A stretch of DNA of 35,451 nucleotides, taken from positions 1 through 35,451 of IMG/VR virus record IMGVR_UViG_2695420367_000003, one strand, 5' to 3'. The notes under the pieces were generated by a model that was given only the letters and a program-made list of their open reading frames with translations, did no database searches and was not told the DNA's origin. The DNA is from a virus. Its lineage: Duplodnaviria; Heunggongvirae; Uroviricota; Caudoviricetes. The translations under genes and the position numbers were made by a program. Below are positions 11,700-29,308 of this stretch, piece by piece (position 1 is the stretch's first letter; the number at the start of each line of letters is the position of its first letter).

Positions 11700-11900
11700 T
11701 GACCTGAGCTCTCACGGGGCGGAAGGCGCGCGGGTTTTCGCTATTTATGAAAATTTTCCGGTTTAAGGCGTTTCCGTTCTTCTTCGCCGTAACTTAATGT
11801 TTTTATTTAAAACCCCCCCTGAAAAGAAAGGAAACGACAGATGCTGAAAACGGGCTTTTTGGCCTTTGTCGTTTCCTTTCTCTGTTTTTGTCCGTGGAAT
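11700..11900 (+). promoter_or_regulatory. cos: Helper cos site (cosN-like 12-mer at about 11717-11728, plus cosB with R sites and IHF site) upstream of Nu1
   Basis: …GGGCGGAAGGCG CGCGGGTTTTCGCTATTTATGAAAATTTTCCGGTTTAAGGCGTTTCCGTTCTTCTTCG… is nearly identical to the lambda cos region as I recall it, except within the 12-mer. Confidence 0.8.
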
Positions 11901-11905
11901 GAACA

Positions 11906-12425
11906 ATGGAAGTCAACAAAAAGCAGCTGGCTGATATTTTCGGTGCGAGTATCCGTACCATTCAGAACTGGCAGGAGCAGGGAATGCCCGTTCTGCGAGG
12001 CGGTGGCAAGGGTAATGAGGTGCTTTATGATTCTGCCGCCGTCATAAAATGGTATGCCGAAAGGGATGCTGAAATTGAGAACGAAAAGCTGCGCCGGGAA
12101 GTTGAAGAACTGCGGCAGGCCAGCGAGGCAGATCTCCAGCCAGGGACTATTGAGTACGAACGCCATCGACTTACGCGTGCGCAGGCCGACGCACAGGAGC
12201 TGAAGAATGCCAGAGACTCCGCTGAAGTGGTGGAAACCGCATTCTGTACTTTCGTGCTGTCGCGGATCGCAGGTGAAATTGCCAGTATTCTCGACGGGAT
12301 CCCCCTGTCGGTGCAGCGGCGTTTTCCGGAACTGGAAAACCGACATATTGATTTCCTGAAACGGGATATCATCAAAGCCATGAACAAAGCAGCCGCACTG
12401 GATGAACTGATACCGGGGTTGCTGA

Positions 12426-12451
<26 letters not shown>
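11906..12451 (+). CDS. Nu1: Terminase small subunit Nu1
   Basis: MEVNKKQLADIFGASIRTIQNWQEQGMPV… matches lambda gpNu1. Confidence 0.95.
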
Positions 12452-16132
<3,681 letters not shown>

Positions 16133-16152
<20 letters not shown>

Positions 16153-17452
16153 TCTCCCGCATATTGCCAGTATGGCCTTTAATGAGCCGCTGATGCTTGA
16201 ACCCGCCTATGCGCGGGTTTTCTTTTGTGCGCTTGCAGGCCAGCTTGGGATCAGCCGCCTGACGGATGCGGTGTCCGGCGACAGCCTGACTGCCGGAGAG
16301 GCACCCGCGACGCTGGCGTTATCCGGTGATGATGGCGGGCCACGACAGGCCCGCAGTTATCAGGTCATGAACGGCATCGCCGTGCTGCCGGTGTCCGGCA
16401 CGCTGGTCAGCCGGACGCGGGCGCTGCAGCCGTATTCGGGGATGACCGGTTACAACGGCATTATCGCCCGTCTGCAACAGGCTGCCAGCGATCCGATGGT
16501 GGACGGCATTCTGCTCGATATGGACACACCGGGCGGGATGGTGGCGGGAGCATTTGACTGTGCTGACATCATCGCCCGTGTGCGTGACATAAAGCCGGTA
16601 TGGGCGCTGGCCAACGACATGAACTGCAGTGCAGGTCAGCTGCTTGCCAGCGCCGCCTCCCGGCGTCTGGTCACGCAGACCGCCCGGACAGGCTCCATCG
16701 GCGTCATGATGGCTCACAGTAATTACGGTGCTGCGCTGGAGAAACAGGGTGTGGAAATCACGCTGATTTACAGCGGCAGCCATAAGGTGGATGGCAACCC
16801 CTACAGCCATCTACCGGATGATGTCCGGGAAACACTGCAGTCCCGGATGGATGCAACCCGCCGGATGTTTGCACAGAAGGTGTCGGCATATACCGGCCTG
16901 TCCGTGCAGGCTGTGCTGGATACCGAGGCTGCAGTGTACAGCGGTCAGGAGGCCATTGATGCCGGACTGGCTGATGAACTTGTTAACAGTACCGATGCGA
17001 TCACCGTCATGCGTGATGCACTGGATACACGTAAATCCCGTCTCTCAGGAGGGCGAATGACCAAAGAGACTCAATCAACAACTGTTTCAGCCACTGCTTC
17101 GCAGGCTGACGTTACTGGCGTGGTGCAAGCGACGGAGGGCGAGAACGCCAGCGCGGCGCAGCCGGACGTGAACGCGCAGATCACCGCAGCGGTTGCGGCA
17201 GAAAACAGTCGCATTATGGGGATCCTCAACTGTGAGGAGGCTCACGGACGCGAAGAACAGGCACGCGTGCTGGCCGAAACCCCCGGTATGACCGTGGAAA
17301 CGGCCCGCCGCATTCTGGCAGCTGCACCACAGAGTGCACAGGCGCGCAGTGACACTGCGCTGGATCGTCTGATGCAGGGGGCACCGGCACCGCTGGCTGC
17401 AGGTAACCCGGCATCTGATGCCGTTAACGATTTGCTGAACACACCAGTGTAA
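16133..17452 (+). CDS. C: Head protease/scaffold protein C (GTG start)
   Basis: MTAELRNLPHIASMAFNEPLMLEP… matches lambda gpC; 20-nt overlap with B as in lambda; the track ORF start at 16019 is upstream of the true start. Confidence 0.9.
16847..17452 (+). CDS. Nu3: Scaffolding protein Nu3 (internal in-frame start within C)
   Basis: In-frame ATG (MDATRR…) 714 nt downstream of the C start, the same offset as lambda Nu3 relative to C. Confidence 0.7.
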   Translation: MDATRRMFAQKVSAYTGLSVQAVLDTEAAVYSGQEAIDAGLADELVNSTDAITVMRDALDTRKSRLSGGRMTKETQSTTVSATASQADVTGVVQATEGENASAAQPDVNAQITAAVAAENSRIMGILNCEEAHGREEQARVLAETPGMTVETARRILAAAPQSAQARSDTALDRLMQGAPAPLAAGNPASDAVNDLLNTPV

Positions 17453-17461
17453 GGGATGTTT

Positions 17462-17794
17462 ATGACGAGCAAAGAAACCTTTACCCATTACCAGCCGCTG
17501 GGCAACAGTGACCCGGCACATACGGCAACCGCGCCCGGCGGATTGAGTGCGAAAGCGCCTGCAATGACCCCGCTGATGCTGGATACCTCCACCCGTAAGC
17601 TGGTTGCGTGGGATGGCACCACCGACGGTGCTGCCGTTGGCATTCTGGCGGTTGATGCTGACCAGACCAGCACCACGCTGACGTTCTACAAGTCCGGCTC
17701 GTTCCGTTATGAGGATGTGCTCTGGCCGGAGGCTGCCAGCGACGAGACGAAAAAACGGACCGCGTTTGCCGGAACGGCAATCAGCATCGTTTAA
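17462..17794 (+). CDS. D: Head decoration protein D
   Basis: [40 protein letters not shown]… matches lambda gpD; AAGGGA RBS. Confidence 0.95.
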
Positions 17795-17849: not shown

Positions 17850-18125
17850 ATGTCGATGTACACAACCGCCCAGCTGCTGGCGGCAAATGAGCAGAAATTT
17901 AAGTTTGATCCGCTGTTTCTGCGTCTCTTTTTCCGTGAGAGCTATCCCTTCACCACGGAGAAAGTCTATCTCTCACAAATTCCGGGACTGGTAAACATGG
18001 CGCTGTACGTTTCGCCGATTGTTTCCGGTGAGGTTATCCGCTCCCGTGGCGGCTCCACCTCTGAATTTACGCCGGGATATGTCAAACCCAAGCACTTAGC
18101 ATGGCTTTCTGAGGCTTTCGTGTAG
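17850..18125 (+). pseudogene. E: Major capsid protein E, 5' portion only (codons 1 to about 82), interrupted by the satellite insertion
   Basis: MSMYTTAQLLAANEQKFKFDPLFLRLFF…SEFTPGYVKPKH matches the lambda gpE N-terminus, then diverges into 9 unrelated codons and a stop at the insertion junction. Confidence 0.9.
18085..18094. repeat. Left junction core (attL-like) AACCCAAGCA
   Basis: Identical 10-mer at 28518-28527; joining the flanks restores …GTCAAACCCAAGCATGAAGTG… (VKPKHEV of E). Confidence 0.75.
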
Positions 18126-18257
18126 TTGCTGGTTTTTACACTTAATCTTTTGATAATAAAGAATAAGTTTATCTGGCGCTTTCACTGGATTTTCCTCGTT
18201 ATCTGTGTGTTGCAATCATCTCTGTATTGCAGCTTGTATTGCTTTTTGGGGCTAAAA

Positions 18258-19493
18258 ATGGCTGGCGAGAACAAACTGAGCGACAAAGCACTTAAAGGAT
18301 ATCTGGGGAAACCCAGAGAAAAGCAGATCACCATTGCTGATGGAAAGGGGCTTTCTATTCGTGTGAGTACCAAGGGGGCTGTGAGCTTTGTTTTCTTCTA
18401 CAGGTTAGCAGGTGGCCGGGCTGCTCCGGTCTGGCTAACGTTGGGTAAATATCCTGATATGTCACTCAAACAGGCAAGGGAAAAGCGCGACGAGTGCCGT
18501 GGTTGGTTGGCTGACAAACGTGATCCGCGTATCCAGATTAAGATTCAGGCTGAAGAACGCTTAAAGCCGGTCACAGTGGAGGATGCACTAAATTACTGGT
18601 ATGAAAATTACTGTAAGGTGCGTCGTAAAACTCATGCTGTAACGCTTGGCAGATTTCGAAAGCATATCTTTCCCTATATCGGTCATTTGCCCGTAAATGA
18701 CACTCACCTATATGAATGGCTGGACTGTTTTGACCGAATTAAACGTAATGCACCAGTTATGGCGGCGTATGTTTTTTCTGACACTAAATTAGCTCTTCGT
18801 TTTTGTCGGGTACGCCAGTACGCGACGTGTGATGCTTTAAAGGATTTGCGCATGAGTGATGTGGGGCAGATTGCAGGTAAGCGGGATCGGGTTCTGGATG
18901 AAGCCGAACTGGGCCAGCTCTGGAAGGCAATTTTTGTCGAGCCTGATTTAAAACTAATGTCTGAATACACGCGAAAAATGTTTGTGCTTTGTACAGTATT
19001 TGGATGTCGAATGAGTGAAGCCCGATTATCAGAATGGAGCGAATGGGATCTCGAAAGTTGGGTTTGGACTGTACCAAAAGATCACTCAAAAACTGGTGTT
19101 GAAATCGTCAGACCAGTACCTGAAATTCTACGACAGTGGGTAACGGATGTTCACGAAGAGACAAAACATACTGGTTATGTGCTGGGAAGTCTGCGAATTA
19201 GAGAAAGCGTAAGCAAGATTGGGGGGAAAATCGGTAAACGTTTGGGCCATGAAAAACAATGGTCACTACACGACCTTAGAAGAACGCTTTCAACCCATCT
19301 GAGTGATTTGGGCGTTGAGTTTCATGTAGTGGAGCAGCTGTTAGGCCATGCGCTACCTGGCGTGGCAGGTGTTTACAACCGGAGTAAGTTTATGGCTAAA
19401 AAACTGGATGCTCTGGAACTCTGGACTACATATCTCAATAGCATCGCAGCTGCTGATTCAAAAGTGACAATCCTCAAACAAAAGGCTGGTTAA
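18258..19493 (+). CDS. int: Tyrosine integrase (P4-type, with N-terminal arm-binding domain)
   Basis: N-terminal …LSDKALKGYLGKPREKQITIADGKGLSIRVSTKGAVSFVFFYR…; catalytic-region motifs HDLRRT…LLGH…VYNRS; true ATG at 18258, the track start is upstream. Confidence 0.88.
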   Translation: MAGENKLSDKALKGYLGKPREKQITIADGKGLSIRVSTKGAVSFVFFYRLAGGRAAPVWLTLGKYPDMSLKQAREKRDECRGWLADKRDPRIQIKIQAEERLKPVTVEDALNYWYENYCKVRRKTHAVTLGRFRKHIFPYIGHLPVNDTHLYEWLDCFDRIKRNAPVMAAYVFSDTKLALRFCRVRQYATCDALKDLRMSDVGQIAGKRDRVLDEAELGQLWKAIFVEPDLKLMSEYTRKMFVLCTVFGCRMSEARLSEWSEWDLESWVWTVPKDHSKTGVEIVRPVPEILRQWVTDVHEETKHTGYVLGSLRIRESVSKIGGKIGKRLGHEKQWSLHDLRRTLSTHLSDLGVEFHVVEQLLGHALPGVAGVYNRSKFMAKKLDALELWTTYLNSIAAADSKVTILKQKAG

Positions 19494-19494
19494 C

Positions 19495-19728
19495 ATGAAA
19501 AAAATGGCAATTGTCGATAAAAAGGGTCTGGAGTACATTCCTAACATTGACCGTATGATCCGCGAAAAAGAATGCCGTGAGTTAACTACTCTTGCTAATA
19601 GCACTCGATGGAAGTTAGAGAAAGAAGGAAAGTTTCCAAAGCGTATTAAAATAGGTGCCACTGCCGTAGCATATCGCCTTTCGGAGGTGCAGGCGTGGAT
19701 TCGTGGGGAATGGTACTTAAATAAGTAA
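19495..19728 (+). CDS. alpA: AlpA-family HTH regulator/excisionase-like protein
   Basis: …ECRELTTLANSTRWKLEKEGKFPKRIKIGATAVAYRLSEVQAWI… fits the AlpA pattern; directly follows int. Confidence 0.8.
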   Translation: MKKMAIVDKKGLEYIPNIDRMIREKECRELTTLANSTRWKLEKEGKFPKRIKIGATAVAYRLSEVQAWIRGEWYLNK

Positions 19729-19736
19729 ATCATTTC

Positions 19737-19765
19737 AATTAGGTAGGTTTATTACCTACCTAATT
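19737..19765. terminator. Perfect palindrome AATTAGGTAGGT-TTATT-ACCTACCTAATT between convergent genes (bidirectional terminator candidate)
   Basis: Seen directly: 12-bp perfect inverted repeat with a 5-nt loop, between the alpA stop and the stop of the minus-strand 241-aa gene. Confidence 0.6.
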
Positions 19766-19768
19766 AAT

Positions 19769-20494
19769 TTAAATCATGTCTGCCTTATTTCCTAATTTTA
19801 TGGAGCAATCCTCTAAAAGATGCCCGATGAACTTATGAGTTCCAATAACATAATCTTGAAGCCTATATTCCATTCCTAATAATGACTTGTTCTCTTTGTC
19901 CTTGAAAAAAGGAAAAGAGGCAAGGTTTTCATCGACAATATAAAGGTGTTTGATTTTGTTGTTTAAAACCCTAGTTTCGTTAATGACATCGTAAGAATCA
20001 AGTTGGGAGAGGTCAATACCATAACTTAAGTATTTCTTTTTTAATTTATCCCATGTATATGGAACTTTAACTTGACTTTCAGGTATTTCTTTAATAATTG
20101 CTTCTAGCAAAGAGTATGCCATGGTACTAAACTGTTCAATAATAGCCCAAAGATTAATTACGACACTGTCATTGGCAAAAAATGAGGCTTTTCTATTAAG
20201 ATCATCATAATAACCAACCATCTCTCTATGTCTGGCTTGAGAAATCAAGGCCATTTCATGCACTTCATCGTCTAATAAGTCTGGATTATATTGGGGAGTG
20301 TTGTCTGCAATTTTTTGTATCTCCTTAAGATTTATGTTATATGTATGATAAACAAATGAGTGAAATACTATTAGATCTTCAAGTCGGAACGAAAATTTCC
20401 CAAGTAGAGACAGGAATCTACTATCATGAGGGAAATAATGTGGGATAGGATTGTCTGTTAAATTATATTCACTTATTCGTTTTAGATTTTGCAT
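19769..20494 (-). CDS. Hypothetical 241-aa protein, AT-rich cargo (function unknown)
   Basis: Long ORF, visibly AT-rich versus surrounding genes, co-oriented and 24 nt downstream of the RHH gene; no motif I recognise. Confidence 0.6.
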   Translation of the reverse strand: MQNLKRISEYNLTDNPIPHYFPHDSRFLSLLGKFSFRLEDLIVFHSFVYHTYNINLKEIQKIADNTPQYNPDLLDDEVHEMALISQARHREMVGYYDDLNRKASFFANDSVVINLWAIIEQFSTMAYSLLEAIIKEIPESQVKVPYTWDKLKKKYLSYGIDLSQLDSYDVINETRVLNNKIKHLYIVDENLASFPFFKDKENKSLLGMEYRLQDYVIGTHKFIGHLLEDCSIKLGNKADMI

Positions 20495-20518
20495 CTCTCA
20501 CAGATCCTTTTAAAAGTC

Positions 20519-20713
20519 TTAACCTCTAGGTTCAATACCTTGTTTGCGTAGTTCTGCTCTTGCTAGTTCTTTAAGCCAATTAGCCAAACTCATTCCTTCT
20601 TTTGCAGCCGCACTAACCATTTGTTCTTTTAGTTCCGGGTGGATACGGATCTGAAATGCCGGTGCCTTACCAGCACCTTTCGGCTGTTTATCGCGCTGAA
20701 TGATAGTTGACAT
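20519..20713 (-). CDS. Ribbon-helix-helix (CopG/Arc-like) DNA-binding protein; candidate repressor or antitoxin
   Basis: 64 aa; …FQIRIHPELKEQMVSAAAKEGMSLANWLKELARAEL… is typical of RHH proteins; first gene of a leftward operon diverging from the replication module. Confidence 0.65.
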   Translation of the reverse strand: MSTIIQRDKQPKGAGKAPAFQIRIHPELKEQMVSAAAKEGMSLANWLKELARAELRKQGIEPRG

Positions 20714-20716
20714 GTA

Positions 20717-20817
20717 TGTACCTATTGCTTAGTATGCTTCTTGATAGGTACACACCTTATCATGTTTTATTACTCTGTAACAACGCCCTGCAGTGCTCGC
20801 AACACATACAGGGCGTT
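20717..20817. promoter_or_regulatory. Divergent control region with two 9-bp inverted repeats, each with an 18-bp spacer
   Basis: TGTACCTAT…ATAGGTACA (20717-20752) and AACGCCCTG…CAGGGCGTT (20782-20817), between the divergent RHH gene and the 20853 ORF. Confidence 0.5.
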
Positions 20818-20852
20818 TAACCACCAACGATAGCAACAGTATCGAGGTAGCT

Positions 20853-21056
20853 ATGAGAAATCATACCACACACCCGCAAGGGCGGGACCCGCACAACCTG
20901 AATAAATACATCTGGCGTTTTATCGCCCTGAGTACGGCACAACCGCGCGTGATTACCATCGAGGCCACCAGCGAACAGGAAGCCCGCCAGCAATCCCCAA
21001 CTGGCTGCGTGATGATATTCGCCGCCCGTATTCGTCAGGAGGTGTGCCATGAATGA
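20853..21056 (+). CDS. Hypothetical small protein (67 aa)
   Basis: GAGGTAG RBS before the ATG; first gene of the rightward operon leading to the primase. Confidence 0.5.
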   Translation: MRNHTTHPQGRDPHNLNKYIWRFIALSTAQPRVITIEATSEQEARQQSPTGCVMIFAARIRQEVCHE

Positions 21057-21273
21057 TCTTTATTTGAAAGTGCTGACACATGCTGAAAACGCGCTCGTTT
21101 GTGGCAAAAATATGCGAGAAATCTTATCAACCTGGCTTGATGGGACAACAAATGCGGAACACGATGAACGGGATGCTAATTTAGCTGGAGCGTTAATTAC
21201 GTTACTTGATCCTGTCATCAAAGAGCTGGATGAAGCTATAAAAATACACGACCAGAGCTATACCGGAGAATAA
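21049..21273 (+). CDS. Hypothetical small protein (74 aa)
   Basis: AGGAGGTG RBS; start overlaps the upstream ORF stop. Confidence 0.5.
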   Translation: MNDLYLKVLTHAENALVCGKNMREILSTWLDGTTNAEHDERDANLAGALITLLDPVIKELDEAIKIHDQSYTGE

Positions 21274-21276
21274 AAA

Positions 21277-21564
21277 ATGAAAAATAAATTTTCTGGCTTT
21301 ATTGCCAGCGGTCAAACTCATTCAAAAATCAGCCTTGGGGATATTTTCAAAGACAGCTATGGCTATCGGGTAAAGATTATTTCGGTTGATGATCGTCGTG
21401 TCTCTTATTTGCGTGATGGTTATGATTTTGAATGTGTTATGCCGCGTCAGCAGTTCGAAAGAGATTTCATTCTGGTAAAAAATTGCAAGACAGATAATCA
21501 GAGGCGTGCCGCAGGCTATATCCGTAAAATTCGGGCAATGTTAGTTGCCGGAGGTAACAAATGA
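21277..21564 (+). CDS. Hypothetical small protein (95 aa)
   Basis: GGAGAA RBS; stop overlaps the primase start. Confidence 0.5.
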   Translation: MKNKFSGFIASGQTHSKISLGDIFKDSYGYRVKIISVDDRRVSYLRDGYDFECVMPRQQFERDFILVKNCKTDNQRRAAGYIRKIRAMLVAGGNK

Positions 21565-23381
21565 AACGTGCTCCGAACTTAAAATACCAACCGCGCGACA
21601 AAATGACGGAAGTCATCATTTTTGCTGGCAGTGATGCCTGGAGCCATGCAAAAGAATGGAATGAATGGGCAGGTAAGCATATTGCAGCAGATGATACACC
21701 ACCAGTCATTCTGGGTACAGAACAACTGGAAAACCTGGATGATATGCAAATTATCGATGAAGGCCGTCATTATGTGCGTGTTTATCGTGCTGGAAAGATT
21801 GCAGAGAAAAGTCTGACGAAGGTTGCGACATTACTTGCTATTGCAGGCGTAAAGGAAGCACGTTGTTACCGTAGCTTTGTTGATCGAGAGCCTGAAGACT
21901 GGACTCCGCGCCTTGTCGGCCTAAAAGCTGAAGCGGAGCATGGGGAAAGTCTGGTGATTGAACTGCCAGTGAAGAAGGCAGAGCGCAAAAATGACGAGCG
22001 TGCTTCATCTTTGGCGTTGAATCAGATGGGGGCCAGCCAGCGCGGTGAAGTTCTCCTTGCACATTACGGCGGCGAACTGGCAATCAATGCCGACTCTGAC
22101 ACCGTTCATCATTACAACGGCGTTGTATGGGAGCCGGTTCAGGATAAAGAGTTACAGCGTGCTATGGCGCAGATTTTCATTGATGCGGAGATCAGCTATT
22201 CGCAGAACGCTATTAAATCGGCGGTAGATACCATGAAGTTAAGTTTGCCTGTAATGGGGAATACAGCCCGTAACCTGATTGGATTCAGTAACGGGGTATT
22301 TGATACCAGAACTGGTAATTTTCGGGAGCATAACAAAAACGACTGGTTGTTAATTGCCAGTGAATTACCTTTCAGCCCACCAGCAGAGGGGGAAACGCTG
22401 GCAACACATGCGCCGAATTTCTGGAAGTGGTTGCGCCGTTCGGTGGCTGAGAATGACCGCAAGGCAGATCGCGTACTGGCGGCATTATTCATGGTGCTGG
22501 CGAACCGGTACGACTGGCAGTTATTCATTGAGGTAACAGGGCCGGGGGGAAGTGGTAAAAGTGTGATGGCGGAGATTTGCACCATGCTGGCGGGTAAGGC
22601 GAATACAGTATCAGCAAGCATGAAGGCGCTGGAAGATGCAAGGGAACGTGCGTTAGTGGTTGGCTTTTCGCTGATTATCATGCCGGATATGACCCGCTAC
22701 GCTGGTGATGGGGCAGGGATTAAGGCCATTACAGGCGGTGACAAGGTGGCAATTGACCCGAAACACAAAGCCCCCTATTCAACGCGTATTCCGGCAGTAG
22801 TGCTGGCGGTTAACAATAACGCCATGTCATTCAGTGACCGCAGCGGGGGGATCTCACGTCGTCGGGTGATATTCAATTTTTCGGAAGTTGTACCGGAGAA
22901 CGAACGCGATTCGATGCTGGCGGAAAAAATAGAAGGTGAGCTGGCGGTAGTGATTCGTCATCTGCTTACACGGTTTGCTGATCAGGACGAAGCCAGACGC
23001 CTGTTATATGAGCAGCAGAAATCTGAAGAAGCACTGGCGATAAAGCGAGAGGGGGATTCGCTGGTGGACTTCTGCGGCTATCTCATGGCATCGGTAATGT
23101 GTGATGGCCTGTTAGTGGGTAATGCTGAAATTGTGCCATTCAGCCCACGCAGGTATCTCTATCATGCCTATCTGGCTTATATGAGGGCACATGGGTTTGG
23201 TAAACCTGTAACACTGACGCGCTTCGGTAAAGATATGCCGGGGGCAATGGCGGAATATGGCAGGGAGTATATGAAACGGAAAACGAAGCACGGTTTGCGT
23301 TCAAACGTGACACTGACGGAGGAATCAGAAGACTGGATGCCATCATGTGTATCGGTCACTAATGACGATAGCAAAAATTAA
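21561..23381 (+). CDS. Phage/plasmid primase-helicase (P4-alpha-like domain with SF3 helicase Walker A GPGGSGKS)
   Basis: 606 aa; Walker A and downstream helicase-like motifs; immediately followed by the iteron array. Confidence 0.85.
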   Translation: MKRAPNLKYQPRDKMTEVIIFAGSDAWSHAKEWNEWAGKHIAADDTPPVILGTEQLENLDDMQIIDEGRHYVRVYRAGKIAEKSLTKVATLLAIAGVKEARCYRSFVDREPEDWTPRLVGLKAEAEHGESLVIELPVKKAERKNDERASSLALNQMGASQRGEVLLAHYGGELAINADSDTVHHYNGVVWEPVQDKELQRAMAQIFIDAEISYSQNAIKSAVDTMKLSLPVMGNTARNLIGFSNGVFDTRTGNFREHNKNDWLLIASELPFSPPAEGETLATHAPNFWKWLRRSVAENDRKADRVLAALFMVLANRYDWQLFIEVTGPGGSGKSVMAEICTMLAGKANTVSASMKALEDARERALVVGFSLIIMPDMTRYAGDGAGIKAITGGDKVAIDPKHKAPYSTRIPAVVLAVNNNAMSFSDRSGGISRRRVIFNFSEVVPENERDSMLAEKIEGELAVVIRHLLTRFADQDEARRLLYEQQKSEEALAIKREGDSLVDFCGYLMASVMCDGLLVGNAEIVPFSPRRYLYHAYLAYMRAHGFGKPVTLTRFGKDMPGAMAEYGREYMKRKTKHGLRSNVTLTEESEDWMPSCVSVTNDDSKN

Positions 23382-23394
23382 ACTTATGGAATAA

Positions 23395-23620
23395 CTGTTC
23401 ACCACTGTTCACCCTGTCATAAATATCTTTTATATCAGTATATTATAGGGTGAACAGTTATTTATGAACTGTTCACCAAACTATTCACTGTTCACCTTTT
23501 TGATTGTTTATTGAGCTTCAAGGGTGAACAGTGGTGAACAGTTGGTGAATAGTTTTTGTGAAACTGTTCACCCATTAACATTATGAATTAAAAGAGAAAA
23601 TATCAAAAGGTGAACAGGTG
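23395..23620. repeat. Satellite replication origin: at least 10 copies of the iteron GGTGAACAG/CTGTTCACC in both orientations
   Basis: Seen directly: the motif recurs at about 23396, 23406, 23449, 23469, 23489, 23524, 23534, 23545 (variant), 23565 and 23610 within an AT-rich stretch downstream of the primase. Confidence 0.8.
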
Positions 23621-23668
23621 AAGGGTTAAAACGCAAAAATTTTAATTTACTGCTGTGAGATAAAGCCT

Positions 23669-23914
23669 ATGACAGCGAAGCACACAAAAAAATCACAATC
23701 GCACGCCCTTGATTTGACGGAACACTGGTTAAGGGTGTCGATAAAAATCATCGACCGCAACGCCGGGGAAGGATACGCGAAAGCACATCCCGAACTGATT
23801 AGCGCATTCATGACAACGGCGGCTGCAAACTTTGCCACTCTGACCGAACGGGAGATTGCTGAAGCGGAGGAAGTGACAACAATCAATATTAAGTCCGGAG
23901 AGCAGGCAGCATGA
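23669..23914 (+). CDS. Hypothetical protein (81 aa)
   Basis: ORF overlapping the SSB-like gene start; no recognisable motif. Confidence 0.45.
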   Translation: MTAKHTKKSQSHALDLTEHWLRVSIKIIDRNAGEGYAKAHPELISAFMTTAAANFATLTEREIAEAEEVTTINIKSGEQAA

Positions 23915-24360
23915 TGGCGCAAATATCAGTTTACGGGCGGTTGGTGGACGACCCGCAGACAAAACAGACCAGCAAGGGCACCCCCATGACGCTGGCGCGT
24001 ATGGCGGTATCAATGCCCTGCAGTCAGTCGGATGACGGTCAGGCGACGATGTGGTTATCTGTCCTGGCGTTTGGCAGACAAGCCGACGCACTGGCAAAGC
24101 ATCACAAAGGCGAACTCCTGAGCGTGGCGGGTAACATGCAGATGAGCCAGTGGACTGGACAGAACGGCGAAACGCGGCAGGGCTGGCAGGTTATCGCAGA
24201 CAGCGTAATCAGTGCGCGATCGGTGCGACCGGGCGGCAAAAAAGGCCAACAGGGGCAGGCTACTGACGAACTGAACAGAGCAAAACAACAGGCAGATCAG
24301 CAAGGAAGCCAGCCACCAGTGGGAGATAATGAGCAATGGGGAGATGATATCCCGTTTTAA
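23911..24360 (+). CDS. SSB-like single-stranded DNA-binding protein with C-terminal acidic DDIPF tail
   Basis: OB-fold-like N-terminal region parallels E. coli SSB; Gly/Gln-rich linker; C-terminal …EQWGDDIPF. Confidence 0.7.
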   Translation: MMAQISVYGRLVDDPQTKQTSKGTPMTLARMAVSMPCSQSDDGQATMWLSVLAFGRQADALAKHHKGELLSVAGNMQMSQWTGQNGETRQGWQVIADSVISARSVRPGGKKGQQGQATDELNRAKQQADQQGSQPPVGDNEQWGDDIPF

Positions 24361-24375
24361 ATATTGCCAATAAAA

Positions 24376-24401
24376 AAGGCCGGAAAAAATAAATTTTCCG
24401 G
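24376..24401. terminator. Hairpin GCCGGAAAA-AATAAA-TTTTCCGGC downstream of the SSB-like gene
   Basis: Perfect inverted repeat with A-rich and T-rich arms; a possible terminator or attenuator before the capsid genes. Confidence 0.4.
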
Positions 24402-24576
24402 CATGCTACATAAATCCCGACCAAAGGGAGTGAAGATATTAACACTAATTGTCCGCACTGAAGTTGTCACCCCAAAACTTTATACAACATTGCACTCGGT
24501 TGCATGTGTTCGCATGACAAATATCGGTGGTAGCATATATCCACAATTATTTTTAATGAATGCAAAGAGGATGCGT

Positions 24577-25617
24577 ATGGTTGATTTATATTCGCCTACT
24601 CAGCTTGTACAGGTGGTTAATGCTGTAGATGTACAAAAACAACTAAATGCGTTGTTTACCAGTTTGTTTTTTACTCGCTCGGTAATGTTTGAATCGCGCG
24701 ATATTATTCTTGATACAATCGACGATCCAAATATCCCAATTGCAGCGTTTTGTTCTCCTATGGTGGGTAGTAAAGTTTCACGTGACGAAGGGTACGAATC
24801 AAAAACAATTCGTCCAGGCTATATGAAGCCGAAAAGCAGCATTGATCCAAATAAGTTAGCTGTGCGCCCTGCTGGTGTATCACCTGAGCAATACAATGCT
24901 TTTGGGGCACGTAATATTAAAGTTAAACAGGCGATTGTAAATCAAGCTAAAGCTATTCGTGCACGTATTGAATGGCTTGCTGTTCAGGCAATCACAACGG
25001 GGAAAAATATCATTGAGGGCGATGGTATTGAACGTTATGAGCTGGACTGGAATATTAAACCACAAAATATCATCACTCAGTCTGGCGGTGCTGAGTGGTC
25101 AGGTAAGGATAAAGAAACTTTTGATCCAAATGATGATATTGAGAGCTACGCAGAATTTAGTGAGGGCGTCACTAATATTATCATTATGGGCGGTAATGTA
25201 TGGAAGAAATACCGTTCATTCAGAGCGATAAAAGAGGCTCTGGATACCCGTCGTGGTTCTAATTCCGAACTGGAAACGGCCCTTAAAGACCTTGGTGATT
25301 CGGTGAGTTTTAAAGGGTATATGGGCGATGTTGCGATTGTTGTATACAGCGGGCGTTATACCGACGAGGACGGAACTGAAAAACATTTCCTTGATCCTGA
25401 TTTGATGGTGCTTGGCAATACGGCTCTTCAGGGGATTGTCGCCTATGGCGGTATTCAGGATCCGGAGCTAATCCGAATGGGGCTGACTAAAGCCGAACTT
25501 GCACCGAAAAACTATATTGTGCCTGGTGATCCGGCTATTGAATATGTGCAGACACATTCAGCACCACAGCCAATACCGGCCCGCATCAATCGTTTTGTTA
25601 CCGTTCGCATTGGCTAA
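24577..25617 (+). CDS. Satellite-encoded major capsid protein, diverged homolog of lambda gpE
   Basis: C-terminal 180 aa align to lambda E (…SGGAEWSGKDKETFDPNDDIESYA…LDTRRGSNSELETALKDLG…GDVAIVVYSG…); N-terminal half diverged but collinear (RPGYMKPKS vs TPGYVKPKH); GAGG RBS 6 nt before the ATG at 24577. Confidence 0.85.
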   Translation: MVDLYSPTQLVQVVNAVDVQKQLNALFTSLFFTRSVMFESRDIILDTIDDPNIPIAAFCSPMVGSKVSRDEGYESKTIRPGYMKPKSSIDPNKLAVRPAGVSPEQYNAFGARNIKVKQAIVNQAKAIRARIEWLAVQAITTGKNIIEGDGIERYELDWNIKPQNIITQSGGAEWSGKDKETFDPNDDIESYAEFSEGVTNIIIMGGNVWKKYRSFRAIKEALDTRRGSNSELETALKDLGDSVSFKGYMGDVAIVVYSGRYTDEDGTEKHFLDPDLMVLGNTALQGIVAYGGIQDPELIRMGLTKAELAPKNYIVPGDPAIEYVQTHSAPQPIPARINRFVTVRIG

Positions 25618-25626
25618 GGGGGAGCA

Positions 25627-25968
25627 ATGGCTACTCATTACACTGAACTCATGGCTGGCACTGAAGCACTGGTGACTACACTGGGGATATTTTCAGCTAA
25701 TAAAGGGGTAATTCATGCATTTACGCCACTGATGCAGGAAGATGCAACAGGTGCACTGGTGGTATGGGATGGTTCGAGCGTAGGTAAAGCGGTTTATGTT
25801 TCCGCTGTACAAATCGACACCGCGAAAAAAACACAGGCTCAGGTCTATAAGACAGGTGTCTTAAATGTTGATGCTCTGAACTGGCCTGAGTCTGTTAAAG
25901 AACTGTCAGTAAAGGTTGCAGCGTTTGTTGGCTCAGGTATTTCTGTTCAGCCGCTGGCTCGTGTGTAA
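25627..25968 (+). CDS. Satellite-encoded head decoration protein, diverged homolog of lambda gpD
   Basis: 113 aa; shares the spaced pattern TPLM…WDG…G…Q.YK.G…WPE…AF.G..ISV with lambda D (copy at 17462-17794). Confidence 0.65.
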   Translation: MATHYTELMAGTEALVTTLGIFSANKGVIHAFTPLMQEDATGALVVWDGSSVGKAVYVSAVQIDTAKKTQAQVYKTGVLNVDALNWPESVKELSVKVAAFVGSGISVQPLARV

Positions 25969-25979
25969 AGGGGGATACA

Positions 25980-26363
25980 ATGCAGAATGATTACAATGAC
26001 CTTAAGCCAATTGCCGAAATGATGTACCCGAATCAAGCTGTAGAGGAATTAAAAGCTATCGCTGACAAAATGTGTTTAAGCGAGCGCCTTGTTGATATGA
26101 ATCAGGTGATGGAAATTACAACCCTGAGTCGTCGTACACTGCTAAACCTTGAGGCTAGTGGAGAGTTCCCGGAGCGTGTGCAGGTTACGGAAGGGCGTAA
26201 GGCCTGGTATTTAAGTGAAGTGATCGACTGGATAAATAATATTCCTCGCGCTTCTGAATATTGCCGCGTACCTGTCCCAAAAAAGCCAGATGCGGCGCTA
26301 TGCCTCAAGATTGAGCGTGTACGCCGCAATGCACGGGATGGTCGCTATAAGCTGATTGGTTGA
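25980..26363 (+). CDS. HTH DNA-binding protein (AlpA/MerR-like motif) adjacent to satellite cos
   Basis: …MEITTLSRRTLLNLEASGEFPERVQVTEGRKAWYLSEVIDWI… helix-turn-helix; last gene before cos. Confidence 0.6.
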   Translation: MQNDYNDLKPIAEMMYPNQAVEELKAIADKMCLSERLVDMNQVMEITTLSRRTLLNLEASGEFPERVQVTEGRKAWYLSEVIDWINNIPRASEYCRVPVPKKPDAALCLKIERVRRNARDGRYKLIG

Positions 26364-26413
26364 TGAAGTTAGGGCCCGCTCTGGCTGGCGGGTCCTTTCC
26401 GGCGATCCAGAAC

Positions 26414-26600
26414 GTTACGGGGCGTCAGGCGCGCAGATTCTTGCTATTTATGACAATTTTCTGCGATTTGCCGTTTCCGTTCTTCTTCCTCGTAACTTAG
26501 TGTTTTTACTAGAAATACCCTCTTAAAAGAAAGGAAATGACAGGTGCTGAAAACAGGCTTTTGGGTCTCCGTCATTTCCTTTCTCATTTTTATCTAAAAG
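26414..26600 (+). promoter_or_regulatory. cos: Satellite cos site (cosN-like 12-mer at about 26420-26431 plus cosB-like R and IHF elements), no terminase gene attached
   Basis: About 190 bp closely similar to the helper cos region (…CGTTTCCGTTCTTCTTC…AAAAGAAAGGAAA.GACAG.TGCTGAAAAC.GGCTTTT…TTTCCTTTCTC…); not followed by Nu1. Confidence 0.8.
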
Positions 26601-26815
26601 TAAGCATCGAGGCCACCCCAAATGCTTATAGAGGTTATTGTGTCACTATGCGTACTGTTCAGGATTTAAAGTAGCAAGACATCTAGTTGCTTGCAGTTTT
26701 GGCGAATGATGTGAGGTTCTCTATAACAGATAATGTAACAAGTTACTGATATATTCTGTTATGGTTGACTTTAAATTCTGTTGCTCCTTCAATGAATTAT
26801 TGAGGGGTGAAAATT

Positions 26816-26841
26816 AGGCGTGATAAGAATCGATCACGCCT
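26816..26841. terminator. Hairpin AGGCGTGAT-AAGAATCG-ATCACGCCT just beyond the 3' end of the minus-strand cargo gene
   Basis: Perfect 9-bp stem; T-rich on the plus side and A-rich on the minus side. Confidence 0.5.
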
Positions 26842-26846
26842 ATTGT

Positions 26847-28163
26847 TTATCTTGAAGAAATTTTAGGCAGGCTTTTTAAAAATAAATCTTTATTTCTACT
26901 TGCATCAGTTAAAAGTGTTAGGAATATTTTATCTGTAGGAGTGCATGTGCTCTTGTTTAACAGTAATTCACCAAGTTTCTGTAATCGAGAGAATTGCCCA
27001 TCCTCTTGGATTCTGTGACGAAGTGTACTATCATTTTTAATAACATCAACAAATGCAGAAACCATGTTAATATCAAAGTATTCAAACATTTCCAATATTA
27101 AAGGTGCAGCCCCATTTGAATAAAAATTCTTCCTTCCATACTGATAGCTGAAACCACGATGGCCAACATAAGTTTTTGTAATGGCTGAAACAAATTCAAC
27201 AATATTATCTTCAGGGACGAAACTCGAGAATGGTAATAATTGGGTTACGATTTTTTCCTCTTCTGACCAATTATCTAAAGACTCGGTGAGTTTATTAATG
27301 AGAGGCTCAATAATAACTTTTCGGGATGCAGGGCTAATATACATCAGTCCATCTACCAATAGTATGAATTGTTGTGCCTTCTCTATCTTATTGTTGTTTC
27401 CTGAAACTAAATACTTGTCAAATTGTTGGCCGACTTTACGTCGGTCGTCTTTTGAAAGTAATGTCCATAAAATAGGTGCGCAAAATTCAATGTTGTTTCT
27501 GAGTTCACTTGATATATTGGATGAGCAGTATGTGCCAAAAAAACGAGAGGATAATTCACTGATATAAATTGCAGGTAGATCTGAAAAGGCTTGCTTAACT
27601 GCCAGACTATTTTTATTAAATGTTGCCGAATCCATTTCTGAAAGATATGTAGATATATCTATGATGGCTGGTGGAAACTCTTTAGAAAGAACGTATTTAT
27701 TACAATCATTAATCAGGTTCACTACTTTGATTAAATCAGGGTCGCTACTTTGTGGATGTCCACCAAATAGATTCCTGGTTTCTCTAGCTTGTTGTAATAG
27801 TTTCTGACCTTCTCGATCGATAACTCCTATTTTAAATGCTCCATCTATTAAATCAAAGTCGCTCACATAATCCTGAAAATCTTCATACGTTTTAATTTCT
27901 TTTTTTTGTTTACACTCTTTGTTGAATAGATCTAGGCTACGATGAATTATCTTTTGACGTAAATCATCAACTACAGCATTCCAGTAAGCAGTGATGGCAC
28001 TTCTATAACCTTTTACAGGAAGAACTCTTATTGCTTCTGAAATATATGGGCAGTCAACTACATCATGCCTCACAGTTGAGAGCGCAGTTTGTAACAATGT
28101 AACTTCTGTAGAGTCTAGTGGAGTTGGCTGCACTAAATGAGAACTTATCTCTGTACCCTTCAT
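26847..28163 (-). CDS. Hypothetical 438-aa protein, AT-rich cargo (function unknown; candidate accessory or defence gene)
   Basis: Long uninterrupted ORF, visibly AT-rich, between satellite cos and the right junction; no motif I recognise. Confidence 0.6.
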   Translation of the reverse strand: MKGTEISSHLVQPTPLDSTEVTLLQTALSTVRHDVVDCPYISEAIRVLPVKGYRSAITAYWNAVVDDLRQKIIHRSLDLFNKECKQKKEIKTYEDFQDYVSDFDLIDGAFKIGVIDREGQKLLQQARETRNLFGGHPQSSDPDLIKVVNLINDCNKYVLSKEFPPAIIDISTYLSEMDSATFNKNSLAVKQAFSDLPAIYISELSSRFFGTYCSSNISSELRNNIEFCAPILWTLLSKDDRRKVGQQFDKYLVSGNNNKIEKAQQFILLVDGLMYISPASRKVIIEPLINKLTESLDNWSEEEKIVTQLLPFSSFVPEDNIVEFVSAITKTYVGHRGFSYQYGRKNFYSNGAAPLILEMFEYFDINMVSAFVDVIKNDSTLRHRIQEDGQFSRLQKLGELLLNKSTCTPTDKIFLTLLTDASRNKDLFLKSLPKISSR

Positions 28164-28517
28164 TTCAGGATTTTCCTATTCTTTTCCATTTTTCTACTCT
28201 ATTGAATTTGAAAAAGATATCAAGTTCGTTCTTGCCAGTTTTAAGTGGAAAAATTGATGTTACCTTATTGAGATAAGGCAGTTCTCTATAACCTATTGTT
28301 ATTAATTATTTTTATTTTTTTTCCAATTCAGATGTTTAGGGCTAAGAAGTTAAGTGAGAGTTCACAGCAAAACTGCTTCTAGTTCCTCACCGAGGAGCAA
28401 AAGGTTAAGACAGCGTACTTTGTATTGCACAATGTATTGCAGAACCTTCTTTCGAAAGCTACAACAATCAATTTTATATTGAAAATTCAATCATATCCTT
28501 TCGATATTGACTCATAT

Positions 28518-28527
28518 AACCCAAGCA
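28518..28527. repeat. Right junction core (attR-like) AACCCAAGCA
   Basis: Identical to 18085-18094; the downstream sequence continues in the E reading frame. Confidence 0.75.
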
Positions 28528-29308
28528 TGAAGTGAATCCGCAGATGACCCTGCGTCGCCTGCCGGATGAAGATCCGCAGAATCTGGCGGACCCGGCTTAC
28601 CGTCGCCGTCGCATCATCATGCAGAACATGCGTGACGAAGAGCTGGCCATTGCCCAGGTGGAAGAGATGCAGGCAGTTTCTGCCGTGCTTAAGGGCAAAT
28701 ACACCATGACCGGTGAAGCCTTCGATCCGGTTGAGGTGGATATGGGTCGCAGTGCGGCGAATAACATCACGCAGTCCGGCGGCACGGAGTGGAGTAAGCG
28801 TGATAAGTCCACGTATGACCCGACCGACGATATCGAAGCCTACGCGCTGAACGCCAGCGGTGTGGTGAATATCATCGTGTTTGATCCGAAAGGCTGGGCG
28901 CTGTTCCGTTCCTTCAAAGCCGTCAGGGAGAAGCTGGATACCCGTCGCGGCTCTCATTCCGAACTGGAGACAGCGGTAAAAGACCTGGGCAAAGCGGTGT
29001 CTTATAAGGGAATGTATGGCGATGTGGCCATCGTCGTGTATTCCGGACAGTACGTGGAAAATGGTGTCAAAAAGAACTTCCTGCCGGACAACACGATGGT
29101 GCTGGGCAACACTCAGGCACGCGGTCTGCGCACCTATGGCTGCATTCAGGATGCGGACGCACAGCGCGAAGGCATTAACGCCTCTGCCCGTTACCCGAAA
29201 AACTGGGTGACCACCGGCGATCCGGCGCGTGAGTTCACCATGATTCAGTCAGCACCGCTGATGCTGCTGGCTGACCCTGATGAGTTCGTGTCCGTACAAC
29301 TGGCGTAA
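28520..29308 (+). pseudogene. E: Major capsid protein E, 3' portion (codons about 80 to 341), separated from its 5' portion by the satellite
   Basis: …KHEVNPQMTLRRLPDEDPQNLADPAYRRRRIIMQNMRDEELAIAQ… to the C-terminus …DPDEFVSVQLA matches lambda gpE; no own start codon or RBS. Confidence 0.9.

Follow-up and report, generated by a model that had tools for sequence, protein, structure and literature searches.

Ordinary divergence as the probable origin of a missing attachment core in the capsid gene of a satellite inserted in the capsid gene of its lambda-like helper

The DNA analysed here, a 35,451-nucleotide stretch of a tailed-phage record (hereafter the window), holds two homologous major capsid genes: gene E of a lambda-like prophage, interrupted by an inserted satellite, and an E-like gene carried by the satellite itself. 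The satellite is bounded by a 10-bp attachment core that belongs to the helper's E, and the equivalent position of its own capsid gene lacks that core. The locus therefore raises the question of whether the satellite gene has been altered at this position such that the element does not insert into itself, as the initial annotation proposed, or whether the core is missing for a more ordinary reason. Our preferred answer, to which we assign a probability of roughly 0.87, is that the window is a lambda-like prophage whose E is split by a 10.4-kb HE-PICI of the E:Phage_cap_E:80 type, a near-twin of Eco567.11capE, that this element carries an old PICI capsid module, and that the missing 10-mer reflects ordinary divergence.

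The split capsid gene and the element within it

The window covers the late operon region of the prophage, which is co-oriented with the element; the helper's chromosomal site cannot be seen in it. Helper genes upstream of the element comprise O, P, a moron region, Q, the lysis genes, the cos region, Nu1, A, W, B, C and D, of which the cos region and the head genes Nu1, A, W, B (portal), C (S49 protease) and D occupy positions 11714–17794 on the plus strand, 5' of E. The moron region (1811–6799), which separates replication gene P from the nin region, contains a gene for an intimin/invasin-like inverse autotransporter of 1302 aa that has many Big_1 repeats. On the opposite strand it encodes an alpha/beta-hydrolase esterase (BD-FAE) of 347 aa.

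Helper E starts at 17850, is interrupted after ...PGYVKPKH at 18094, and resumes at 28528 to end at 29308. The 5' fragment (17850–18094, plus strand) holds codons 1–82 of this major capsid gene, its last bases being the attachment core, and meets a stop shortly past the junction; the 3' fragment (28528–29308) lies on the same strand. When the two fragments are joined they encode an intact 341-aa E protein with the motif ...PGYVKPKHEVNP..., which matches Pfam Phage_cap_E (E = 1e-71) and whose gene is 97.8% identical in nucleotides to lambda E. With the element removed in silico, E is recovered exactly.

The 10-bp identity block AACCCAAGCA is present exactly twice in the window (0.15 expected by chance), on the plus strand in both cases: as attL at 18085–18094, a junction that is conserved in relatives, and as attR at 28518–28527. 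At attL it closes the coding stretch for PGYVKPKH, in agreement with the initial annotation's statement that the core encodes ...VKPKH. The element has no internal copy of the block, and its only near-matches to the core carry two mismatches; over the whole window, near-matches were fewer than expected by chance (25 vs 37.9). A doubled motif, TGTATTGCnnnnTGTATTGC, lies on the plus strand in each satellite arm, at 18223–18242 to the right of the core (∼133 bp from the core centre) and at 28421–28440 to its left (∼82 bp), with two exact matches in the window and none in 100 shuffles. These spacings fit the published values for HE-PICI attP sites, in which two copies of the HE-PICI-specific doubled motif tgTGTATTGCantgTGTATTGCa stand at −81±2 bp and +132±2 bp from the centre (PMC10111431).

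The element itself (18095–28517, 10.4 kb) splits helper E at codons 79–82. It opens with a P4-type tyrosine integrase of 411 aa with an Arm-DNA-bind_3 domain (18258–19493, plus strand) and an AlpA regulator/excisionase homologue (19495–19728, plus strand; Phage_AlpA, E = 6.5e-15). A variable zone follows alpA, occupied here by a 241-aa ORF on the minus strand (19769–20494) without a match in Pfam or PADLOC; other genes hold this position in E. coli NRG857c and ET665. The replication zone consists of a DUF4222 gene (21277–21564) located 5' of a D5-type primase/helicase (21561–23381, plus strand; D5_N, Pox_D5, DUF5906) and a single-strand DNA-binding protein (23911–24360, plus strand; SSB, E = 4.5e-17), and the element also encodes a HicB-like protein. 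Next come the E-like satellite major capsid gene (24577–25617, plus strand, 346 aa; Phage_cap_E, E = 1.4e-41), a D-like head decoration gene (25627–25968, plus strand; HDPD, E = 7.8e-15) and a second helix-turn-helix protein of the AlpA family (25980–26363, plus strand, 127 aa), for which a PDB search returned an AlpA-family entry (8C3T, E = 2e-9) and no match of any other kind. The integrase, alpA, primase and capsid genes all lie on the plus strand, oriented like the helper late genes.

A cos-like segment (26417–26591, plus strand) is 81% identical to helper positions 11714–11888, just upstream of Nu1, and was recovered as a 177-nt match to the helper cos region when the element was compared with the helper by BLASTN. 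Beyond it, the variable right-end hotspot is filled by a 438-aa ORF on the minus strand (26847–28163) that has no match in Pfam or PADLOC; the same ORF is found in E. coli ET665 (99.8% aa identity). In close relatives this hotspot carries HEPN and DUF262, DUF2971, Abi-like or TIR-domain genes, which makes the 438-aa ORF a candidate for anti-phage cargo on the basis of its position. In an Rfam search at gathering thresholds, the whole window (1–35451) gave no match, including to the C4/isrK immunity RNAs that have been reported for some HE-PICIs and P4.

In content the element corresponds to a Gram-negative PICI, with an integrase and AlpA, a primase/helicase and SSB, a helper-type cos segment, no tail or lysis genes, and a length within the ∼10–12 kb range. 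From its position, it interrupts helper E until it is excised. By analogy with PICI biology and with the sister element, late transcription from the helper would read into the co-oriented element, the integrase and AlpA would excise it, the excised form would replicate from its own primase and origin, and the helper terminase would package it through the cos-like site. We infer excision, packaging and the sequence needs of the integrase from the DNA and by analogy with 11capE.

The satellite capsid gene at the position of the core

In the program-made ORF list, the frame of the satellite capsid gene extends upstream to a TTG at 24364 (417 aa, with 24364–24576 as the additional part). Translation almost certainly begins at the ATG at 24577, which is preceded by AAGAGGA and fits the 1041-nt RefSeq annotation in relatives. 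The protein matches positions 4–327 of Pfam profile PF03864 (E = 1.4e-41), and among solved structures it comes closest to 3BQW ('putative capsid protein of prophage', 2.6e-121), a CFT073-type capsid, with a far weaker match to lambda gpE (7VI9, 2.3e-76). Both the full-length Pfam match and the gpE-type structures place it in Phage_cap_E. Against helper E it is 43% identical in amino acids and 50% in nucleotides.

In a global protein alignment, helper PGYVKPKH faces satellite PGYMKPKS, encoded by CCAGGCTATATGAAGCCGAAAAGC at 24814–24837, and a codon-anchored alignment places the position homologous to the core at 24827–24836 (plus strand), where the satellite reads AGCCGAAAAG and matches AACCCAAGCA at 5 of 10 nucleotides. 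The initial annotation was thus right that the two regions are homologous and that the satellite's version is without the 10-mer. Its further claim, that the gene had diverged exactly at the core, finds no support in the gene as a whole: 5/10 is the median of 948 in-register 10-nt windows (mean 5.08), and just 10 of the 948 (1%) are fully identical. Synonymous change close to the site, at 6 of 7 conserved degenerate codons compared with 61% gene-wide, was not significantly elevated (P = 0.17). Because a capsid module already ∼50% diverged in DNA from lambda-type E would rarely retain any such block, the absence of the 10-mer at 24827–24836 would be the default expectation and not a targeted change.

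The same alignment narrows the statement that the protein was conserved while the DNA changed. This holds for KPK, at which both wobble positions differ in the window. It fails at the next residue, where His is replaced by Ser, and to the right of the core, where helper HEVNPQ stands against satellite SSIDPN and, in a manual count on the aligned sequences, 6 of 16 flanking nucleotides are identical. Self-integration is unlikely because the satellite's E-like gene offers no matching site. The obstacle would be the absence of the site as a whole, that is of positions 9–10 (His vs Ser) and of the right-hand flank to which the integrase would bind; the wobble differences within KPK would not constitute the barrier.

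Among 5426 complete E. coli genomes, about 395 have a full-length copy of the satellite capsid gene, and some of its carriers do not target E. One such element (L004) lies between abgR and smrA, has a capsid gene 96% identical in nucleotides, and yet encodes an integrase that is 45% identical and a different replication protein, a RepA-type helicase. In a second (L003), which adjoins tRNA-Pro, the capsid gene is 79% identical in nucleotides and the integrase 26% identical in amino acids. Loci in Kluyvera and Superficieibacter (L005 and L006) have neither a close relative of the integrase nor flanking E fragments. The core-equivalent reads AACCGAAAAG in L004, AGCCAAAAAG in L003, AACCAAAGAG in Kluyvera and AGCCGAAAAG, as in the window, in Superficieibacter. 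A scan of genome contigs with the capsid protein yielded four loci only, a number too thin for statistics. The occurrence of the same allele in PICIs that do not target E argues that, as judged from these alignments, the core-equivalent sequence is characteristic of an old and mobile capsid module of the PICIs and no response to targeting E. This corrects the adaptive interpretation on two counts, since 50% DNA identity predicts the missing core and satellites that never target E carry this allele too.

The module of E-like, D-like and AlpA-like genes (24577–26363) was observed to move as a unit among PICIs with unrelated integrases and replication genes (L003–L008). In E. coli ET665, whose element is otherwise the closest complete relative (91% coverage, 98% identity), the satellite capsid gene (13316–14356) bears a pseudogene annotation and an internal stop, which hints that the gene may be dispensable in at least some hosts.

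Selected self-avoidance, in which the capsid DNA changed at the core-equivalent while the protein was kept and self-insertion was thereby blocked, is the rival that survives best, and we regard it as improbable. The 10-mer is indeed absent from the interior of the element, the KPK codons are kept with both wobble positions altered, and self-integration has also been called unlikely for the sister element (PMC10111431). Against this stand the median level of identity, the unremarkable synonymous divergence and the shared allele described above. The part of the initial proposal that stands is that the element targets helper E while its own gene is without a matching site; the adaptive part does not follow from a gene of this overall identity with an allele common to PICIs inserted elsewhere.

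Even less probable is a recent late-gene capture, by which the E-like and D-like genes would have been copied from a helper of this kind and then diverged in place. Late-gene capture by PICIs has been proposed in the literature, and the two satellite genes share their Pfam families with helper E and D. Identity to the helper is nevertheless low (43% for E; 37–40% for the D-like protein of the satellite against helper D-type proteins), the order is E then D in the satellite and D then E in the helper, the module is conserved at 80–87% in amino acids across Kluyvera, Superficieibacter, Cedecea and Kosakonia loci, and the capsid matches 3BQW better than lambda gpE. Any capture must therefore have been ancient and not from this helper.

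Attachment-site variation among related elements

Ordinary divergence of the capsid module, our preferred reading, can be set against the variation of working attachment sites. The sample comprised 72 elements, namely 67 IMG/VR loci obtained by an integrase scan, the window, two E. coli genomes, and one locus each from Cedecea and Kosakonia; it is phylogenetically non-independent, being mostly E. coli with integrases 99% identical, and the counts below should be read with this in mind. Integrases of the 67 IMG/VR loci are 89–100% identical, and an E fragment is found at attL wherever it is readable. Of 5426 complete E. coli genomes, 173 contain the attL junction and 3104 an unoccupied site region.

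Across these elements the att 10-mer varies at synonymous positions. The commonest form, AGCCGAAGCA, is also that of lambda E, and others are AACCCAAGCA, as in the window, AGCCCAAGCA, AGCCAAAGCA, AGCCTAAGCA and AACCGAAGCA. Comparison with lambda E places the lambda form at the homologous site with 8 of 10 matches to the window block. Of the five mismatches between the window's core and its core-equivalent, two (positions 2 and 5) also occur as natural variation among functional att sites, and the same positions differ between attL and attR within single elements; such attL/attR differences fall at positions 2 and 5 in E. coli and at position 8 elsewhere among the lineages. The first seven nucleotides of attL (AGCCGAA) are identical, in register, to the element's own capsid gene in 23 of 61 elements. 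The own capsids differ from every att site at one place: 65 of 65 carry PGYMKPKSSIDP, with AG at positions 9–10 (Ser codon), where all att sites have CA, or once TA (His codon). This pair is the sole constant difference within the 10-mer and is non-synonymous; beyond the 10-mer, the contrast between HEVNPQ and SSIDPN is likewise invariant in the family.

The 65/65 count is a point in favour of selected self-avoidance, but the difference it records is a protein-level change from His to Ser that is common to the whole PICI capsid lineage, which has KPKS everywhere. The 7-nt match in 23 of 61 elements and the variability of positions 2 and 5 likewise speak against changes at the DNA level that were selected to block insertion. 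Since the commonest att form shares seven bases with the satellite's own capsid gene, discrimination between the satellite's gene and the helper's would have to depend on the His/Ser codon together with the right-hand flank. There may be weak selection against self-targeting at positions 8–10 or in the right-hand arm.

Among 52 complete elements, attL differs from attR in 16, with nine differing within positions 1–7 and eight within positions 8–10. The unlike pairs combine AGCCG with AACCC (positions 1–5) or GCA with ACA (positions 8–10), and were seen in L013, L018, L021, L022, L028, L037, L040 and L041 and, at position 8, in L008 and L062–L066. Unbroken attL/attR identity falls to 5 bp (AAGCA) or 7 bp (AGCCAAA) in places, which points either to a crossover region in which heterology is tolerated or to recombination at a later time. 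Starting from the 16 of 52 elements with unlike ends, we tentatively consider a further possibility, which we think doubtful at present: an integrase that tolerates mismatches in the crossover would let the att core copy the synonymous variants of its helper in each cycle, and so track drifting capsid genes, with discrimination between self and helper placed on the His/Ser codon and the right arm under weak selection. The polymorphism itself is tabulated in the supplement of PMC10111431 (aacccaagca, agccgaagca, aagca). Such a tracking interpretation is absent from the discussion in that paper, and its main text does not take up the blocks from unlike attL/attR pairs or state that the commonest att variant has its first seven bases in common with the satellite's own capsid gene.

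The weakest rival, that attP arose from a capsid-gene fragment or that targeting of E began by capsid gene pairing, was raised in the initial annotation and finds no support in the DNA: the KPK codons do yield a short shared string, AGCCGAA being the first seven nucleotides of the common lambda-type core, and one published element has two captured prophage segments abutting at the site, with the integrase perhaps involved in gene capture (PMC10111431), but the satellite arms (left ttgactcat[ag]t, right cttagcatggctttc) resemble neither capsid gene, BLASTN of element against helper returns nothing beyond the cos-like segment and 136 nt of capsid sequence (25212–25346) far from the att site, the clade of the integrase has switched between many late-gene sites for which the satellite has no homologue (PMC10111431), and the capsid module moves among PICIs with unrelated integrases, so that we hold this origin to be the least probable of all.

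Comparison with known systems

The E gene of lambda has the same PGYVKPKHEVNP motif as the helper's restored E and differs from it within the core, as described above. Like the window element, the cf-PICIs are satellites with a major capsid protein of their own (Alqurainy et al., bioRxiv 10.1101/2022.09.08.507074). By that account, they encode every protein required for small capsids of their own and take only tails from the helper. We rejected membership in this group: a Pfam search of the element's ORFs found Phage_cap_E and HDPD homologues only, with no portal, protease or terminase.

A closer likeness is seen to the chromosomal PICIs of the EcCICFT073 type, which share the layout of int-alpA, replication and late zones (Fillol-Salom et al. 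2018, PMC6092414; 2019, PMC6739421), likewise rely on cos-type packaging by lambdoid helpers and, in EcCICFT073, carry capsid and head-decoration homologues (c1499 and c1500) as the window element does. Deletion of c1499/c1500 did not relieve interference with lambda (PMC6092414, PMC6739421). Chromosomal PICIs sit at chromosomal sites and meet a helper only in trans, whereas the window element is embedded in its helper; two of them (L003 and L004) also differ in having a small terminase gene after the capsid module.

The nearest known system is the HE-PICI Eco567.11capE of E. coli NRG857c, described at site E:Phage_cap_E:80 by Tommasini, Mageeney and Williams (2023, NAR Genom Bioinform, PMC10111431), whose Figure 1A sets attL/attR beside lambda E and the satellite's capsid homologue and whose text calls self-integration unlikely. 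That paper has 201 HE-PICIs of the E:80 group. HE-PICIs in E, the 10-bp block and the remark on self-integration are accordingly already in print since 2023. The window element agrees with this type as follows: it lies inside late gene E of a lambdoid prophage, co-oriented and without replacement sequence; its att block falls at the same E codon, where the type has aacccaagca, agccgaagca and variants; the doubled motif is present; and its integrase is, in a pairwise comparison, 99.3% identical in amino acids to that of 11capE. The primase is 99.8% and the capsid 100% identical in amino acids, and the two elements share the same site, the same 10-bp block AACCCAAGCA, the doubled motif with its spacing, and the orientation with helper late genes. 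At the cos position, 11capE and its helper 50icd have 258 bp in common at 90% identity (Tommasini et al. 2023, PMC10111431). Restoration of the late gene upon excision of an HE-PICI has been shown experimentally only for 11capE, in which the whole composite replicated first and precise excision was seen ∼2 h after treatment with mitomycin C (PMC10111431). The two elements part at their variable zones: that after alpA is unlike, and at the right end the window has the 438-aa ORF where NRG857c has HEPN and DUF262 genes.
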